64,000 nt of DNA from Bacteroidales bacterium (GCA_028282585.1 JANQHR010000172.1:1-64000); one strand, 5' to 3'; shown: positions 11,953-17,938, numbered from the stretch's first letter. A program made the numbers and translations. Notes: generated by a model from the sequence alone, not told the origin.

Positions 11953-12792
11953 TTAATCAAGGTGGTAATTAGCAAGTTCTTGAATTGGGTTTTTAACTAT
12001 TAAATCTATATTGGTATTATATCTTATAGCAACTTCATTAAGAAAATCTTTGAAATAATAAGCAATGGAACCGATAGCTCTGATTTTATAGTTAGTAAAA
12101 TTCTTATACTTTATAATATGTTTTTCAAACAAATCCGTAAAAGATCTATAAACCAAAGCTATTAAATGTTCTTCAGTTATGTTTGCATTTATAAATTCGC
12201 AAATCGATGCCAAAAACTTATTAGGATTTTCTTCCTTGTAGATTTTTTGCATGATTTGACTCTTAGTCAGTTGATACTTTGCCAAAAATACATTAGAAAT
12301 TTTTTCCGGAATGTTTCCATAAAGCAATTCTGTTACAAAAAGTTTTCCCAGATAATCACCACCACCTTCGTCGCCTAAAATGTATCCCAAGGATGGAATG
12401 TTTTTAGTTATATTTTTGCCATCATATAAACAGGTATTTGCACCTGTTCCAAGAATTAACGCAATGCCGGGATTGTTTTTAAATAACGCTCTTGCAGCAC
12501 CTAATAAATCATGATTAACTTCAATTATAGTCTGGTTAAAAAGTGGTTGTAATCCATTGAAAATTAAATTTTTCATTTCAGGCGTAGAACAGCCGGAGCC
12601 ATAGAAAAATATGTGTTTTATTATTTTAGTATCAAGAGTTTTTGGTAACTGACTTTTAAGATCATTATGTATTTTATTACTTGTTGTAAAGTATGGGTTA
12701 AATCCAACCGTAGTAAATGAAGATTTAATGTGATTATTATCAATTATAATCCAATCAGTATTTGTTGATCCACTATCAGCAATTAATATCAT
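11953..12792 (-). CDS. BadF/BadG-type ATPase, N-acetylglucosamine kinase-like
   Basis: IADSGST, ILGTGAN and GYILGDEGGG sugar-kinase motifs. Confidence 0.8.
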   Translation of the reverse strand: MILIADSGSTNTDWIIIDNNHIKSSFTTVGFNPYFTTSNKIHNDLKSQLPKTLDTKIIKHIFFYGSGCSTPEMKNLIFNGLQPLFNQTIIEVNHDLLGAARALFKNNPGIALILGTGANTCLYDGKNITKNIPSLGYILGDEGGGDYLGKLFVTELLYGNIPEKISNVFLAKYQLTKSQIMQKIYKEENPNKFLASICEFINANITEEHLIALVYRSFTDLFEKHIIKYKNFTNYKIRAIGSIAYYFKDFLNEVAIRYNTNIDLIVKNPIQELANYHLD

Positions 12793-14417
12793 TATTTATT
12801 TTCTTTTTTAACGTATTTTAAGTTAAGTAAATTCATTGGATTGCCTTCAAACCCTGAAATATTATTTTTTACAAAACGAACTACTTCATCATAATATAAA
12901 GGAACAATAACAGCATCATTTATAATAATCTCATTCATTTTATTATATAACAAAATTCTTAAACTATCATTTCTTTCCAGCATGGCTTGTTCATATAATT
13001 TGTCGTAATTTGTATTAAAGTATTGTGTATAATTCGGCCCTCCAGGGCTATGATTTTTACTGTAAAAAAGAGCCAGGTAATTTTCAGAGTCAGGATAATC
13101 TGCAATCCATGAACCTCTGAAAAATTCAAGCTTAGAATTAGCCACCATATCTCTAAAAGTGGCGCCGGTATTTACATTAATGTTAATTTCAATTCCAAAT
13201 TGTGAAAGTTGTTGCTGAATATATTCACATAAATCGAGATAATCGGCGGTTGTAGTTAAAGTAATCGGTACCAAACCTTCACCATTTGGATAGCCGGCTT
13301 CGGTTAACAAATCTCTTGTTTTATGAGGATTATATTCAAACCCCTGAAACTCATCGATGAATCCCGGTAATCCTTTGGGAATGAATCCCTGTAAGGCTGG
13401 TTCTCCAATGCTATTTCGGAGATATTTCATCATTTTAACACGGTCGAATCCGTAGTTGATTGCTTGTCTTATTTTCTTATTTAAAACTGGAGATAATTCA
13501 TTTTTAATTTTTGATGTGTCTAATAAAAACCCCAGGTATTCTGTGTTCAAATAAGGCTGATTAATCATTTTAAATTGATTTTTATACTTAGGATTCAAAT
13601 AACCATTTTTGGTTAATAATTCATCCTTATTCGCAGGATTGAGGCCAGAAATAAAGTCAAGGTTACCTTTAAGAAATTCAAGAAATTCTGATTGCTTATC
13701 ATTAATAAAAGTAATTGAAATTGCGTCTAGGTAGGGAAGAGGATTTCCTAAACTATCTTGTTCGAAATAATTGAGGTTTTTTACCAAAACTAGTTTTTCA
13801 CCTTCCTTCCACATTTTAAACTGAAATGGGCCAGTTCCAACCGGGTTATTCCTAAAGTCACTACCATAATATTCGACTATTTCTTGTGGAATAACCGAGC
13901 AATATTGCATGCTCAATAAACCCAAAAAGGCTGGGAAAGGATTTTTAAGCTTAATTTCTAGAGTACTATCATTTAATGCCTTAATGCCATTTTCTTTAAC
14001 ATTATTAAAGATCCATGCACCTGGCGATGCAGTTCTAGAATCAATGATGCGATTTAAACTGTATTCGAAATCGAATGCAGTTACTTTTCGCCCTTTTCCA
14101 TTAAGAAAAATTTGATGATCATGAAAATAAACATCATTTCGTAGAGTAAACTCATATTTTTTCCCAAAATCTAATATTTTCCAACTTTTAGCAATACATG
14201 GTTTAACGTTTAGGAAGTTATCCATTTGTACAAGTCCATTATACAACTGATTTGCTGGCCATATTAAAACCTGACTTTTGGCAAATGCAGGATCCAGTGT
14301 TGCAATACCTTTAGATTCATTATAACGAAAAACAGTTTTATTGGTTTGAACTTTATTTTCATTGCATGAAAAAAGAAGAAGCAAGATTGGAATGATCAAA
14401 AAAAAATAAATGCGCAT
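12792..14417 (-). CDS. ABC transporter substrate-binding lipoprotein (family 5, Opp/Dpp-like)
   Basis: Lipobox LFSC; TLDPAFA, PVGTGPF, KIRQAINY and WIADYPD motifs. Confidence 0.88.
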   Translation of the reverse strand: MRIYFFLIIPILLLLFSCNENKVQTNKTVFRYNESKGIATLDPAFAKSQVLIWPANQLYNGLVQMDNFLNVKPCIAKSWKILDFGKKYEFTLRNDVYFHDHQIFLNGKGRKVTAFDFEYSLNRIIDSRTASPGAWIFNNVKENGIKALNDSTLEIKLKNPFPAFLGLLSMQYCSVIPQEIVEYYGSDFRNNPVGTGPFQFKMWKEGEKLVLVKNLNYFEQDSLGNPLPYLDAISITFINDKQSEFLEFLKGNLDFISGLNPANKDELLTKNGYLNPKYKNQFKMINQPYLNTEYLGFLLDTSKIKNELSPVLNKKIRQAINYGFDRVKMMKYLRNSIGEPALQGFIPKGLPGFIDEFQGFEYNPHKTRDLLTEAGYPNGEGLVPITLTTTADYLDLCEYIQQQLSQFGIEININVNTGATFRDMVANSKLEFFRGSWIADYPDSENYLALFYSKNHSPGGPNYTQYFNTNYDKLYEQAMLERNDSLRILLYNKMNEIIINDAVIVPLYYDEVVRFVKNNISGFEGNPMNLLNLKYVKKENK

Positions 14418-14475
14418 GTTTTAGCTTTTTCACAAAAATAGTTAAAATATGAACTAGAAGAGAATGGTGTAAATT

Positions 14476-14510
14476 AAAAAAGCCAGAAAACTGCTGTTTC
14501 TGACTTTCTT
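14476..14510 (-). terminator. Intrinsic terminator of a candidate sRNA
   Basis: Minus strand AAAGUCAGAAA...UUUCUGGCUUUUUU; the G.U pair works only on the minus strand. Confidence 0.65.
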
Positions 14511-14610
14511 AATACCCTAAAAATTAAACCTAAAATTTAAATGAAAAAACTGTTTTACACAAACTTTACTTGCAGGTGCTTAGTAAATTAAGCATAATTT
14601 GTTTTCTATA
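14476..14610 (-). ncRNA. Candidate ECF-dependent small RNA (about 135 nt)
   Basis: Bounded by a GAAAC-N16-CGTTA promoter (14641-14616) and its own terminator; contains only a 9-codon ORF. Confidence 0.45.
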
Positions 14611-14615
14611 AATTA

Positions 14616-14641
14616 TAACGATTTAGACAAAAAAAAGTTTC
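14616..14641 (-). promoter_or_regulatory. ECF sigma-type promoter
   Basis: Minus strand GAAAC-N16-CGTTA. Confidence 0.5.
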
Positions 14642-14716
14642 GTAAAAAGTTGGTTTTTCCAAAAAAAATATTATGTAATTTCCCGGAACATTTATGCGTA
14701 CTGAATTTCAGAAGAT

Positions 14717-14748
14717 AAAAAATGCAAGAAATTTTCCTGCATTTTTCT
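14717..14748 (-). terminator. Terminator of the TonB receptor gene
   Basis: AAAAATGCA..TGCATTTTT inverted repeat next to the stop codon. Confidence 0.6.
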
Positions 14749-14751
14749 TTC

Positions 14752-17238
14752 CTAAAACTTTAAAGTTATACCGCCTAAAAAATTAATTCCCGCTTGCGGA
14801 TAATAATAAGCCCAACTACGTTCTTGCCCTTCAGTTAAATAGTTATCAGGGTTTCGCACACCTTCATACCAATTACCTCCATAAGCATTGCTTTCATATT
14901 CAACATCTAATAAATTGTTTACGCGAATAAAGAACGCTAGATTCTTAGCAAATTTAACTTTTGGTGTGTAAAATAATTTAAGATTATTGATAAAATAGGC
15001 ATCCAGTTTTCTGTTTTCGTCTGATGTATTATCAAAGTATTGTTCTCCGACGTATTTGCTTATTAAACTAAGTTCAATTTGTTTAATTGGCTTAAAAGTA
15101 AAAATATTTGATCCAACAAACTCTGGAGAATATGAAATATTTGTGGTTCCTAATTCTCTTGGAAGGTTCCCAAGAGAATTCCAAAATTCATTCGAATAAT
15201 TTGAATATTCAATAAAGTTTTTAATTTTATTTCTACTAAATGTTAAATTAAGTTGCCAATCAAAGAATTTGTTTAATTTAAACCTACTTATGATTTCGAC
15301 ACCTGCTCTGTAGCTCTCATCTACATTTGTTTGAATAGCATAACCAACATTACTTAACTGTCCAGTATTAACCAACTGGTCTTTATAATCCATGTAGTAG
15401 AAATTAAGCGATAATAAATAATTACTTGCTCTAAAATGTCCTCCTAATTCGTAATTATAAAGCGTTTCGTGTTTGGGCATGGCAGTTTCATCTCCGATTG
15501 CATTTTTTAAATCACTTCGTGTAGGTTCTCTATTAGCTACAGCAAAAGAGAAATAACTACTCAATTGTTCATTGATATCGTAGAACAAACCAAATTTCGG
15601 ATTAATAAAATTATAATCTTCAGAATTAGCTAAATCTTTAAAATCGTCATCCAGACCAGTTATTTCATAGGTTACATTTCTATACTGTATGTCACCATAT
15701 AAGTGTAGCTTTGAAAATAGGGTATAAGTTATTTTGCTAAAAACGTTAAAATCTGTTTTGGTCCCATTGTTGTTGTACCATTCGTAATCTTTTACGAAAT
15801 TATTGCCAAATTCAGACCAAAGAACAGTACCATAATGATCACCATCGTATTTATTCCAGGCACCACCTAATGTTAAATCAACTTTATACTTATTATAGTT
15901 TAATGAATAAGTAAACCCATAAAAATGATTATCCAACCACTTTCTTCTAATTATGTCCGAGTTCGTGATTGTACTATCCGGGAAAACCAATCTGCGAGTA
16001 CCAATGAACATTATACTGTCTCCTAGTTTAATATTCGGTAGACCATAATTAGCAAATGCATCACTTTCTTTATATTGTTCGTAATAACCTTTACCCCTTG
16101 TATAATGCAAAGCAAAATTTAAATTTAAATTTTTATTTAACTCATTTGAAAGTAATAGTTGATAATGTGTTTGAGTGTAGTTATCTGTTTGATCCTCGTA
16201 GTATTGAGTATTACCATCTAAATCAGTATATTCTCCTGCAGGATTATATGTTCTATCTTCATCTAAGATATAATCCGGTACTCCCCACCAACTTATTCCC
16301 GTTCTTTCTTTACCTCTAAAGATGTTTGCTTTAATTAAGGTTTTATTGGTATAGTAAGTTCCTGACACAAAAAATGATTCATGATCCGATGAAGAATAAT
16401 CAATAAATCCATCTGTTTGCACTTTCGATAACCTTGCATCGAAACTAAAATGATCGTTTATTAAACCAGACCCAATTAGAAAGTTATTTTTGAACGTATT
16501 GAAAGATCCAAAGCTACTATTTATTTCAGCATAAGCATCTTTAATTATACTTTTGGTTCTAAGATTTATTGTAGCTCCAAAAGCTCCAGCACCATTTGTT
16601 GATGTTCCAACTCCTCGCTGAATCTGAATATCCTGAACTGATGAAGCAATGTCGGGTAAATTTACCCAGAATACTCCTTGCGATTCAGCATCGTTATATG
16701 GAATACCATTAATAGTAACATTTATTCTGGTTGGATCAATCCCACGAATTCGCATTCCGGTGTAACCGATTCCAATTCCTGACTCAGAAGTTTCAACTAG
16801 TGATGGAACAGTACTTAGTAAAAATGGAACATCGCCGCTTGTTTTGTTTTTTTCTATAATTTCTTTATCCAGATTCGTAACCGCCATCGGCGCTTTATCT
16901 CCGGCTCGAGTAGCAGTTACAATAACTTCTTCTGATAGAATATTTGATAACTTCAGAATAAACTCAATGTTCTGAAGATCTTCTTTTTTAACCTGTTTTT
17001 CTATGGTATTATAACCTAAAAAAGATACTTGAAAAGTATAATCACTAGCTTTGATCCTAGAGAAACTAAACTCTCCGTTTACATTGGTTGCAGTGCCATT
17101 AAATGTTTCTTTGATTATTATGTTAGCACCTATTAATGGTTCTCCACTTTCGTTTTTTACAGTTCCTGTAATGTTTTCTTGTGCAAATAAAAAATGTGTT
17201 AATACACTCAAAAAAAATAATACTCCTATCCGTTTCAT
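14752..17238 (-). CDS. TonB-dependent outer-membrane receptor, probably a thiamine-family importer (likely start 17238, MKRIG)
   Basis: Signal peptide; CarboxypepD_reg-like N-domain; plug (RIRG..RINVTINGIP, QRGVGTS); C-terminal F; upstream TPP riboswitch. Confidence 0.88.
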   Translation of the reverse strand: MKRIGVLFFLSVLTHFLFAQENITGTVKNESGEPLIGANIIIKETFNGTATNVNGEFSFSRIKASDYTFQVSFLGYNTIEKQVKKEDLQNIEFILKLSNILSEEVIVTATRAGDKAPMAVTNLDKEIIEKNKTSGDVPFLLSTVPSLVETSESGIGIGYTGMRIRGIDPTRINVTINGIPYNDAESQGVFWVNLPDIASSVQDIQIQRGVGTSTNGAGAFGATINLRTKSIIKDAYAEINSSFGSFNTFKNNFLIGSGLINDHFSFDARLSKVQTDGFIDYSSSDHESFFVSGTYYTNKTLIKANIFRGKERTGISWWGVPDYILDEDRTYNPAGEYTDLDGNTQYYEDQTDNYTQTHYQLLLSNELNKNLNLNFALHYTRGKGYYEQYKESDAFANYGLPNIKLGDSIMFIGTRRLVFPDSTITNSDIIRRKWLDNHFYGFTYSLNYNKYKVDLTLGGAWNKYDGDHYGTVLWSEFGNNFVKDYEWYNNNGTKTDFNVFSKITYTLFSKLHLYGDIQYRNVTYEITGLDDDFKDLANSEDYNFINPKFGLFYDINEQLSSYFSFAVANREPTRSDLKNAIGDETAMPKHETLYNYELGGHFRASNYLLSLNFYYMDYKDQLVNTGQLSNVGYAIQTNVDESYRAGVEIISRFKLNKFFDWQLNLTFSRNKIKNFIEYSNYSNEFWNSLGNLPRELGTTNISYSPEFVGSNIFTFKPIKQIELSLISKYVGEQYFDNTSDENRKLDAYFINNLKLFYTPKVKFAKNLAFFIRVNNLLDVEYESNAYGGNWYEGVRNPDNYLTEGQERSWAYYYPQAGINFLGGITLKF

Positions 17239-17415
17239 TTTTAATAATTTATTGTTTAACATTTTGGATAGTTGACAGCTAATTTTGTGAATACAAACTA
17301 ACTTTGAGGCCTCATAAAATCATTGTTTTTATTAAATAATGATTTCAGTTTACTTGTATAAAGCAAACTTAACTATCAACTTTAATGAAAAACAATGGGA
17401 AATTCTTGATTTACT

Positions 17416-17492
17416 CTTTATCCCTACCCGGCATTACCCGGACCAGGTTCGAAGGGTATGATCTCAGCCTGTATATTCGGCACCCCATTGAC
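17416..17492 (-). ncRNA. TPP (THI-box) riboswitch, variant in the pyrophosphate-binding helix
   Basis: Minus strand GGGGUGCC-GAAUAUACA-GGCUGAGAUCAUACCCUUCGAACCUGGUCCGGGUAAUGCCGGGUAGGGA. Confidence 0.92.
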
Positions 17493-17496
17493 GGGA

Positions 17497-17504
17497 CAAA
17501 TGTA
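17497..17504 (-). promoter_or_regulatory. Bacteroidota housekeeping -7 element for the riboswitch/TonB transcript
   Basis: TACATTTG (TAnnTTTG) immediately 5' of the aptamer. Confidence 0.65.
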
Positions 17505-17525
17505 TGATAAAAATATTTTAAAACA

Positions 17526-17552
17526 AAAAAAGCCGGAGTTAATCCGACTTTT
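17526..17552 (-). terminator. trxA terminator
   Basis: AAAAGUCGGA-UUAAC-UCCGGCUUUUUUU on the minus strand. Confidence 0.7.
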
Positions 17553-17572
17553 AATCATCTTGAGATTTAAAA

Positions 17573-17938
17573 TTAGTTTTCCAAGTCTACTTTTAACACG
17601 TCTTTAATTGCTTTTTGGAATGAATCTTTTGGTAAAGCACCTTGAGCCATTTGTGGTTGCCCATCCATAGGAACAAATAAAAGTGACGGTATACTTCTGA
17701 TTCCAAACATTCCAGCTAATTCTTGTTGGTCTTCGGTATCAACTTTGTATATATCAACTTTACCCTCGTATTCTTTTGATAATTCTTCTAAAATTGGGGC
17801 CACTGTTTTACATGGTCCACACCAATCAGCGTAAAAATCTATTAAACAAGGTTTGTCCCCTTCGAATTTCCAGTCTTTATTCTCCTCCCAGTTAAAAACC
17901 TTTTCCTTGAATGTCTCTTTTGTTAAATGTTCTAGCAT
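17573..17938 (-). CDS. trxA: Thioredoxin
   Basis: DFYADWCGPC active site; IRSIPSL cis-Pro loop. Confidence 0.93.
   Translation of the reverse strand: MLEHLTKETFKEKVFNWEENKDWKFEGDKPCLIDFYADWCGPCKTVAPILEELSKEYEGKVDIYKVDTEDQQELAGMFGIRSIPSLLFVPMDGQPQMAQGALPKDSFQKAIKDVLKVDLEN

Follow-up and report, generated by a model that had tools for sequence, protein, structure and literature searches.

A candidate structural subtype of the TPP riboswitch, with a collapsed pyrophosphate pocket, upstream of TonB-dependent receptor genes in Bacteroidia

Genes and features of the locus

The window is a stretch of 64,000 nucleotides from a Bacteroidales bacterium (GCA_028282585.1). The features described here lie on its minus strand and are listed in Table 1: a leader containing a TPP-type aptamer separates a thioredoxin gene, syntenic in relatives, from the gene of a TonB-dependent receptor. 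The start of the receptor is placed at 17238, where the conserved MKRI begins, while the longest open reading frame runs from 17262; GGGA and the start codon are separated by 182 nt of leader. The promoter consensus of Bacteroidetes is -33 TTTG / -7 TAnnTTTG, and we take the TTTG-N19-TACATTTG found upstream of the aptamer to resemble it; the transcript would start a few nucleotides before CAAUGGGG.

Just upstream of the real start, a conserved AUGUUAAACAAU (17262-17236) forms, in most relatives, a 6-codon uORF ending with UAA; in the window, this uORF and the receptor ORF are joined in one frame. A pairing across the start codon is possible between CUAUCC (17271-17266) and GGAUAG (17231-17226), of which relatives conserve UAUCC and GGAUA.

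By tblastn, 23 of the 34 loci L028-L061 have the SBP_bac_5 gene behind that of the receptor; many of the loci are cut off before that point. In the window it starts 335 nt downstream of the receptor, past a hairpin and a T-run. This hairpin, located after the receptor stop, was read by eye and is not listed by the terminator scan of 14300-17650; SBP_bac_5 is probably on a separate transcript. An earlier note, made from the sequence alone, had described a lone TonB importer, with no adjacent PnuT or TPK gene, and this description holds. Directly after SBP_bac_5, with overlapping stop and start codons, lies a 279-aa ORF (11953-12792, minus strand), for which no Pfam family scored above threshold; past it, a LytTR response regulator and a Y_Y_Y/His_kinase sensor are encoded.

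Table 1. Features of the riboswitch locus, in window coordinates
Feature	Position	Strand	Basis
Intrinsic terminator of the upstream thioredoxin gene (17938-17573)	17528..17552	-	Hairpin and T-run scan; thioredoxin Pfam match
Promoter-like region: TTTG 17527-17524, 19-nt spacer, TACATTTG 17504-17497	17497..17527	-	Conserved in all aligned relatives
TPP-type aptamer	17404..17497	-	RF00059 match, 53.7 bits, E 1.1e-9, below 54.3
Pyrimidine-sensor arm: GGGGUGCC, short P3, CUGAGA 17467-17462, ACCC 17457-17454	17454..17486	-	RF00059 uppercase consensus
P4-P5 arm, with candidate collapsed pocket	17423..17447	-	Sequence; covariation over 42 distinct arms
P4 pairs	C17447-G17423, C17446-G17424, U17445-A17425	-	In P4-P5 arm
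Pocket	Bulge G17444; then G17443.U17426, U17442.G17427	-	In P4-P5 arm
P5; L5 (GUAAUG)	17441-17438 with 17431-17428; 17437-17432	-	In P4-P5 arm
Segment A, CAAUGGG, 5' strand of P1/P2	17484..17490	-	Complementary to segment B; invariant in aligned leaders
Segment B, CCCAUUG (17399-17393) and UUUUU	17388..17399	-	Predicted to pair with A (CAAUGGG) or C (AAAAACAAUG), from invariant complementarity
Segment C, AAAAACAAUG	17321..17330	-	Predicted 10-bp helix with CAUUGUUUUU, then U-rich AUUUUAU
TonB-dependent receptor, CarboxypepD_reg, Plug and beta-barrel, 828 aa	14752..17238	-	Pfam; start alignment
SBP_bac_5 solute-binding protein gene	12792..14417	-	Pfam; conserved neighbor

The aptamer and its Rfam match

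No riboswitch class is more widespread than the TPP riboswitches, which are also an antibiotic target. To our knowledge, their pyrophosphate pocket has been treated as invariant. The aptamer of the window is a full-length match to RF00059 (model positions 1-105, by cmscan), and misses the gathering score by 0.6 bit; a Rfam scan of the window at the gathering threshold gave zero matches. The match is far above chance and formally sub-threshold, the shortfall being due to the pocket deletion, the short P3 and P1. When the region 17100-17800 was compared with all 4227 Rfam families (E <= 10), no match besides RF00059 had an E value below 0.1: the eight others are weak (E from 0.1 to 9.3) and unrelated to thiamine.

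Read on the minus strand, the pyrimidine arm, GGGGUGCC...GGCUGAGAUCAUACCC, is followed by GAACCUG-GU-CCGG-GUAAUG-CCGG-G-UAGGGA. The pyrimidine arm features P2 (GGGG/ACCC), P3 and the CUGAGA of J3-2, and is invariant in the 33 leaders of the family described below. The P4-P5 arm, with a UAAU-type L5, is also present and shows covariation, and the gene downstream codes for a TonB receptor homologous to receptors found behind canonical TPP aptamers, as expected for an element located upstream of thiamine synthesis or transport genes. The conserved G60, C77 and G78 of the pocket are not all found: J5/4 consists of one nucleotide, G in the window and A or U in other members, and C77 and G78 are absent. 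The pocket bases are G17443 and U17442 and, between P5 (C17431-G17428) and UAGG (17426-17423), a lone G17427.

The element thus shares with RF00059 and with E. coli thiM the P2, the CUGAGA T-loop, the ACCC, the P4/P5 arm with its UAAU-type L5 and a thiamine-related gene downstream. It differs from them in the 2x2 loop formed by J4/5 and J5/4, here represented by one pair and a one-nucleotide bulge, and in a non-canonical P1, where non-standard pairs are flagged by cmscan; the available pairing is CAAU/AUUG, with a strand about 25 nt downstream. The earlier note had recognized the pyrimidine sensor and L5 as canonical and had read the arm as CCUG-GU-CCGG-GUAAUG-CCGG-G-UAGGGA, which is confirmed both in the sequence and in the RF00059 alignment; its description of a pyrophosphate pocket remodelled on both strands, with the rest of the aptamer intact, is borne out by the sequence as well.

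One assembled contig of the likely source run (depth 15) is identical to the window over 17230-17560. Contigs of relatives, from other public runs, have T at 17427 of the plus strand, corresponding to A in the RNA, which is the genus consensus. Since the pocket is conserved in 33 genomes, an assembly artefact is irrelevant for the main pocket changes.

Conservation within the family

All 56 genomes of the Bacteroidales family were searched with RF00059. Thirty-three leaders share the pocket of the window: they belong to 32 of the 37 genomes of the genus and to one genome (G002) of a sister genus. Their scores, ranging from 42.9 to 53.7 bits, are all under the cut-off. All 33 read N-GU-P5-L5-P5-(A/G)-UAGG, where the single J5/4 base is A in 32 leaders and G in the window alone. 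The aptamer core is near-invariant across the 33 species, while the flanks are divergent, and P5 covaries (CCGG/CCGG, CCAG/CUGG, UCGG/CCGA, ACAG/CUGU). Downstream of each of the 33 lies a homologue of the TonB receptor of the window, and the gene order trx-leader-receptor-SBP_bac_5 is shared. No RF00059 match was obtained from four genomes of the genus, which are 63-88% complete; a further genome, G031, carries two other TPP-type matches, without this leader.

A unique double mutation, or decay, is ruled out by conservation in 33 leaders. The search proposed by the earlier note, for aptamers sharing the pocket and for their downstream genes, gave within the family 33 leaders, all before TonB receptors; its view that the change is under selection is supported by these leaders, by the covariation of P5 and by the recurrence of the pocket in other lineages.

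Architecture of the pocket

Among the most conserved positions of TPP aptamers are U59, G60, C77, G78 and A80, with G60, C77 and G78 at the metal-pyrophosphate site (PMC3764141); the beta-phosphate is described as hydrogen-bonded by C77 and G78 (bioRxiv 10.1101/2025.01.21.634073). The roles that the earlier note assigned to G60, A61, C77 and G78 agree with both sources. In the second one, TPP switching by an engineered thiM is not reduced by A61G, while A61U brings TPP affinity down to about 2200 nM. The engineered mutants concern the same positions, A61, C63, C77 and G78; in the text available from that preprint they are point mutants in a canonical loop, with no deleted or collapsed version described, whereas the window features a collapsed loop. 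The actual departure from the canon is the missing C77/G78, A61G being harmless on its own.

The cmscan alignment of the window aptamer has G in place of A61 and one J5/4 position deleted. The earlier note had likewise listed A61 changed to G and C77 deleted: the bases are as it stated, but a second alignment is equally valid. There, the equivalent of G60 is the invariant G, paired with U79, 17444 is an inserted bulge, and U17442.G17427 replaces A61-U62/C77-G78.

The two alignments were compared on 42 distinct arms, pooled from all sources; the search patterns were fixed at AACCU, UAAU and UAGGRA, so that those columns are invariant by construction. When N60 is paired with U79 and the G is bulged, 95.8% of the cells are paired. 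When the G pairs with U79 as a wobble and the N is bulged, 98.7% are paired, and the G.U is found in 41 of the 42 arms. For both readings, none of 500 shuffles reaches the covariation score, and slid controls drop to 31-59% paired. Changes on both sides are found for four of the nine arm pairs. The 62:78 pair is A-U in 25 arms, U-A in 14, U.G in two and different in one; the base N before the invariant G may be any of the four (G 19, A 11, C 7, U 5).

The more economical description is that the canonical G.U79 wobble is kept, preceded by a variable bulge, and that one pair replaces the A61-U62/C77-G78 loop; the pocket of the window then reads as a tandem G.U/U.G. The phosphate contacts C77 and G78 are gone, and only the G.U79 wobble is retained. 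With these contacts missing and N60 variable, TPP cannot be assumed to be recognized in the canonical way. The singular event of two mutations, seen by the earlier note, gives way to a broad subtype with a rule of its own, drawn from the 42 arms.

Distribution and detection

In a scan of genome contigs, the GU...R form gave 67 matches, 38 of them inside TPP aptamers. These belong to the same Bacteroidales family, to a second group (Bacteroidia/Marinilabiliales), where they lie before TonB receptors, and to an unclassified bacterium, L092. A metagenome scan, with positions 60, 61, 62 and 78 left free and a single-nucleotide J5/4 required, gave at least 120 matches; among the 120 listed, the form is G-A...U in 114, G-U...A in four, G-C...A in one and C-U...G in one. 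The collapsed pocket is a conserved Bacteroidia subtype of wide distribution, frequent in Bacteroidia from marine and sediment sources.

Ten further loci were scored with RF00059. Nine have a single-nucleotide J5/4 and, of these, only L092 (55.6 bits) passes; the others score 50.9 or less: L304 50.9, L083 47.1, L302 41.8, L314 39.8, L305 39.0, L307 35.5, L311 35.2 and L224 25.6. The tenth, L271, where GU is combined with a normal CG, scores 56.2. As a whole, 41 of the 42 collapsed-pocket matches that were scored are below the RF00059 gathering threshold. Predictions of B1 auxotrophy and transport, using RF00059 at gathering, would consequently under-count regulated importers.

The exception, L092:1136-1248, has a GU...A collapsed pocket and an extended P3a. 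The genes that follow code for a Thiamine_BP (YkoF-like) protein and an ABC permease (ORFs 1237-1533 and 1536-2294).

A second collapsed form, CCU-G-(5-bp P5)-A-AGG, where G is opposite A and no bulge is present, was observed in the class sample (L358, L369, L371). It is found before TonB receptors in three families; a related form lies before thiC in G031 (L072, G031b).

In a literature search covering open-access work, no description of a collapsed-pocket subtype was found, and an earlier description is possible.

Gene context

Within the family, collapsed pockets lie before transport genes in 33 cases out of 33. For the metagenome, 71 of 105 ORFs were scanned, the 34 left aside being short and belonging to loci with little flank: among the matches listed, 68 of the 71 code for TonB receptors, one for ThiC (the C-U...G outlier, L205) and two are without family. 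Transport genes follow collapsed pockets also in 15 of 16 loci of the phylum sample, in three of three of the class sample and in L092, with its Thiamine_BP/ABC operon.

As a control, a pattern with canonical spacing was run on the phylum sample, and matched in 50 of 401 genomes. Among 30 such loci listed, 29 are before TonB receptors and one before ThiD: since the canonical control, too, gave 29 receptors out of 30, the fixed UAAU loop selects receptor leaders. For the class sample, 60 other genomes of the class were searched with RF00059, using stricter filters through which weak matches were lost; this gave 57 matches: 38 before TonB receptors, 12 before ThiS, 4 before ThiC and 3 before other genes. 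The pocket is canonical in 35 of the 38 receptor leaders, the remaining three having the CCU-G-(5-bp P5)-A-AGG form, and CG is kept at J5/4 in all 16 ThiS and ThiC leaders. The gene association, taken as proof of a new ligand, is weakened by both results, the 29 of 30 of the canonical control and the 35 of 38 of the class sample.

In the family, canonical aptamers are found before thiC, thiE, thi4 and a methyltransferase gene. Two other remodelled pockets without C77/G78, G031b of the family and L205 of the metagenome scan, are found before thiC. Canonical and collapsed aptamers coexist in single genomes (G000, G025, G033, G077), which fits different set-points, and also fits different ligands.

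Receptor tree

A quick IQ-TREE tree was built from 58 receptor N-termini, 32 with canonical leaders and 26 with collapsed ones; the latter represent 8 of 33 from the family, 3 of 5 from the second group and 15 of 16 from the phylum sample, L270, L303, L116 and L121 being left out. One deep clade consists of 26 receptors with canonical leaders, all from other classes. A second clade contains all the collapsed-leader receptors, along with six whose leaders are canonical or near-canonical. Close relatives of the receptor of the window include G003 (AU/UG) and G001a (U/CG). The second receptor of its own genome, C39, is 45% identical, has a canonical AU/CG aptamer and adjoins collapsed-leader receptors in the tree. 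Five changes of pocket type are needed on the tree, at least three being forced by well-supported branches.

A new ligand is not needed to account for the gene context, since related receptors have canonical pockets and the type flips at least three to five times. Repeated interconversion of pockets on related genes, with the leader platform kept, would most simply indicate functional equivalence, without amounting to proof. The proposal of the earlier note, of selection for a different ligand, is upheld as far as selection is concerned, by conservation and covariation; its argument from gene context is weakened by the canonical pockets on related receptors.

Two forms of receptor, about 48% identical, occur in different species at the same trx-leader-receptor-SBP_bac_5 locus (in the window and in L036-L060): one is 828-836 aa long, like that of the window, the other about 814 aa, closer to the C39 paralogue. 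Their presence behind one conserved leader suggests allelic replacement or fast divergence.

Thiamine metabolism of the host

The genome to which the window belongs (98% complete) gave no match to ThiC, ThiM or TPK at E <= 0.001. ThiE (24.1 bits) and ThiD (20.1 bits) are below their cut-off, 27 for each, while ThiL scores 316 bits. The organism is without thiamine synthesis, and phosphorylation is by ThiL only. Across the genus, ThiL is above cut-off in 33 of 37 genomes and ThiE in five, the same five that also carry canonical aptamers; TPK was found in none of the 56 genomes of the family. Since synthesis genes and TPK are missing and ThiL is present, most members of the genus are B1 auxotrophs, in which the only recognized phosphorylation is that of TMP to TPP. 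In most members, no TPP-type regulated locus besides the riboswitch-receptor pair was detected. The only PnuC-family gene of the window's own genome (G000:C94) adjoins an AAA_28 (NadR-like) kinase gene, and was not counted as a thiamine transporter.

Expression platform

Three segments of the leader could act as a relay. Pairing of segments B and C is predicted by RNAalifold, where columns 108-117 pair with 179-188 in 24-25 of 25 leaders, and is also found in the single-sequence MFE structure. In these 25 leaders, the relay segments show no covariation, their complementarity being invariant; RNAalifold did not recover the aptamer fold on the same leaders, and found only 2 pairs with compensatory change. 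When MFE structures were calculated with and without the aptamer enforced, the B:C helix was present in both, so that the two states are not discriminated. The terminator scan of 14300-17650 reported no canonical terminator inside the leader. RNA-library contigs of a relative were set aside as transcription evidence, being single 151-nt records overlapping the leader.

The expression platform is accordingly presented as a model, whose relay we infer from invariant complementarity. With no ligand, CAAUGGG of segment A would pair with CCCAUUG of segment B, breaking P2. With ligand bound, the 5' strand would be held in the aptamer, leaving CAUUGUUUUU free: A:B and B:C pairings are mutually exclusive, and A:B excludes P2, so that the ligand should free CAUUGUUUUU. 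This could then form with AAAAACAAUG the 10-bp helix, followed by the U-rich tract AUUUUAU, and the long helix would either end transcription or close the leader, turning the importer off.

The OMthi leaders of Bacteroides offer a comparison for such a leader. They are reported to respond to thiamine, repressing translation at concentrations of 100 nM and above, and long riboswitch-to-gene distances accompany transcriptional control (Costliow et al., bioRxiv 10.1101/867226). In BtTPP2, the leader of Bacteroides OMthi (BT2390), a TPP-type riboswitch lies directly before a TonB-dependent outer-membrane receptor, as it does here, and reportedly represses translation on thiamine supply (bioRxiv 10.1101/867226; PMC5613172). 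Compared by description, the leader of the window differs from it in being long (182 nt) and in having no pnuT or tnr3 (TPK) partner. The receptor of the window has the composition of an OMthi-type transporter, a Plug and a TonB-dependent beta-barrel encoded behind a TPP-type riboswitch.

Proposed function

Sequence architecture, conservation, covariation, gene context and auxotrophy are observed; the identity of the ligand, the direction of regulation and the relay are deduced from them. Taken together, they indicate a genuine, selected riboswitch of the TPP family, belonging to a distinct structural subtype with a collapsed pocket. We favor, with some reserve, the reading that the element still responds to TPP as an OFF switch, whose set-point may be different. 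The riboswitch would control a monocistronic, OMthi-like TonB-dependent receptor, sensing the thiamine phosphate pool of the cell, with TPP most likely as the physiological signal. The pyrimidine pocket, along with a metal ion located at the G.U site, would hold TPP; binding on the phosphate side is probably weaker, or less selective, than in canonical aptamers, and the importer would be switched off when the cofactor is replete.

An altered or relaxed selectivity is a tentative alternative, to which we give clearly less weight: the terminal phosphate would not be read, and the element would respond to TMP, to thiamine, to the total of HMP-thiazole vitamers, or to TPP and TMP equally, tuning importer expression to what an auxotroph provided with ThiL only takes up. 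The lost beta-phosphate contacts and the variable N60 point in this direction, but the invariant G.U wobble, a plausible metal or phosphate site, argues that contact on the phosphate side is still needed. Also in its favor, collapsed pockets are associated with transport genes almost exclusively, in four data sets and for three gene architectures, namely receptors that have the CarboxypepD_reg domain, receptors that lack it, and the Thiamine_BP/ABC operon; yet this association is in part an artefact of the fixed UAAU loop, as the canonical control indicates, the observations are phylogenetically non-independent, and two remodelled pockets lie before thiC. Collapsed aptamers coexist with canonical ones on biosynthesis operons of the same genomes, and reliance of the genus on ThiL makes TMP an obligatory intermediate; against this stand the canonical pockets on related receptors and the flips of pocket type among close relatives. 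That collapsed pockets are a natural specificity or affinity variant, present only on B1 uptake genes and reading TMP or summed vitamers, seems to us possible but doubtful; such a reading would cover the Bacteroidia and one or more bacteria outside them. As a precedent, the HMP-PP riboswitch of the thiamine pathway (thiS motif; eLife 2019, PMC6478431) senses a compound different from TPP: it is a small, terminator-embedded aptamer before thiS, while the RNA of the window keeps the whole two-arm TPP architecture.

A decaying, non-functional aptamer, in a constitutive leader, might be suspected from the sub-threshold Rfam score and the poor P1, but is very improbable, given a core near-invariant in 33 species, compensatory changes both in P5 and at 62:78, and conserved switching segments. 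That the two pocket positions result from an error of assembly or sequencing can practically be dismissed, even though the bases of the window are supported by assembled contigs rather than raw reads, as the same pocket recurs in 32 other genomes and many metagenome contigs, the source contig is identical, and only the G (instead of A) at 17427 is specific to this genome.

A TPP-responsive switch of this kind would represent a minimal alternative solution for pyrophosphate recognition; should selectivity be relaxed instead, vitamin import and synthesis would follow different signals in the same cell. Under either reading, a rule-governed natural subtype without C77/G78, tied almost entirely to B1 uptake genes, may serve as a natural experiment on the extent of the pocket that phosphate discrimination requires.

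Other genes behind TPP-type aptamers

In two genomes of the genus, a glycogen-debranching-enzyme gene (GDE_N/GDE_C) lies about 230 nt past a TPP-type match: L012:317-411 (65.8 bits), with ORF 639-1910, and L061:2940-3040 on the minus strand (31.7 bits), with ORF 756-2705, also on the minus strand. Either a small gene lies in between, or the association is unexplained. A canonical TPP riboswitch is also found 63-98 nt upstream of a gene coding for a class I SAM-methyltransferase of 236-241 aa, in nearly every genome of a sister genus and in two of this genus (L063:613-1335, L008:703-1425, L013:1675-2397, L015:730-1437, L025:728-1435, and about 10 more of genus g4); a SAM-methyltransferase is an unusual member of a thiamine regulon.
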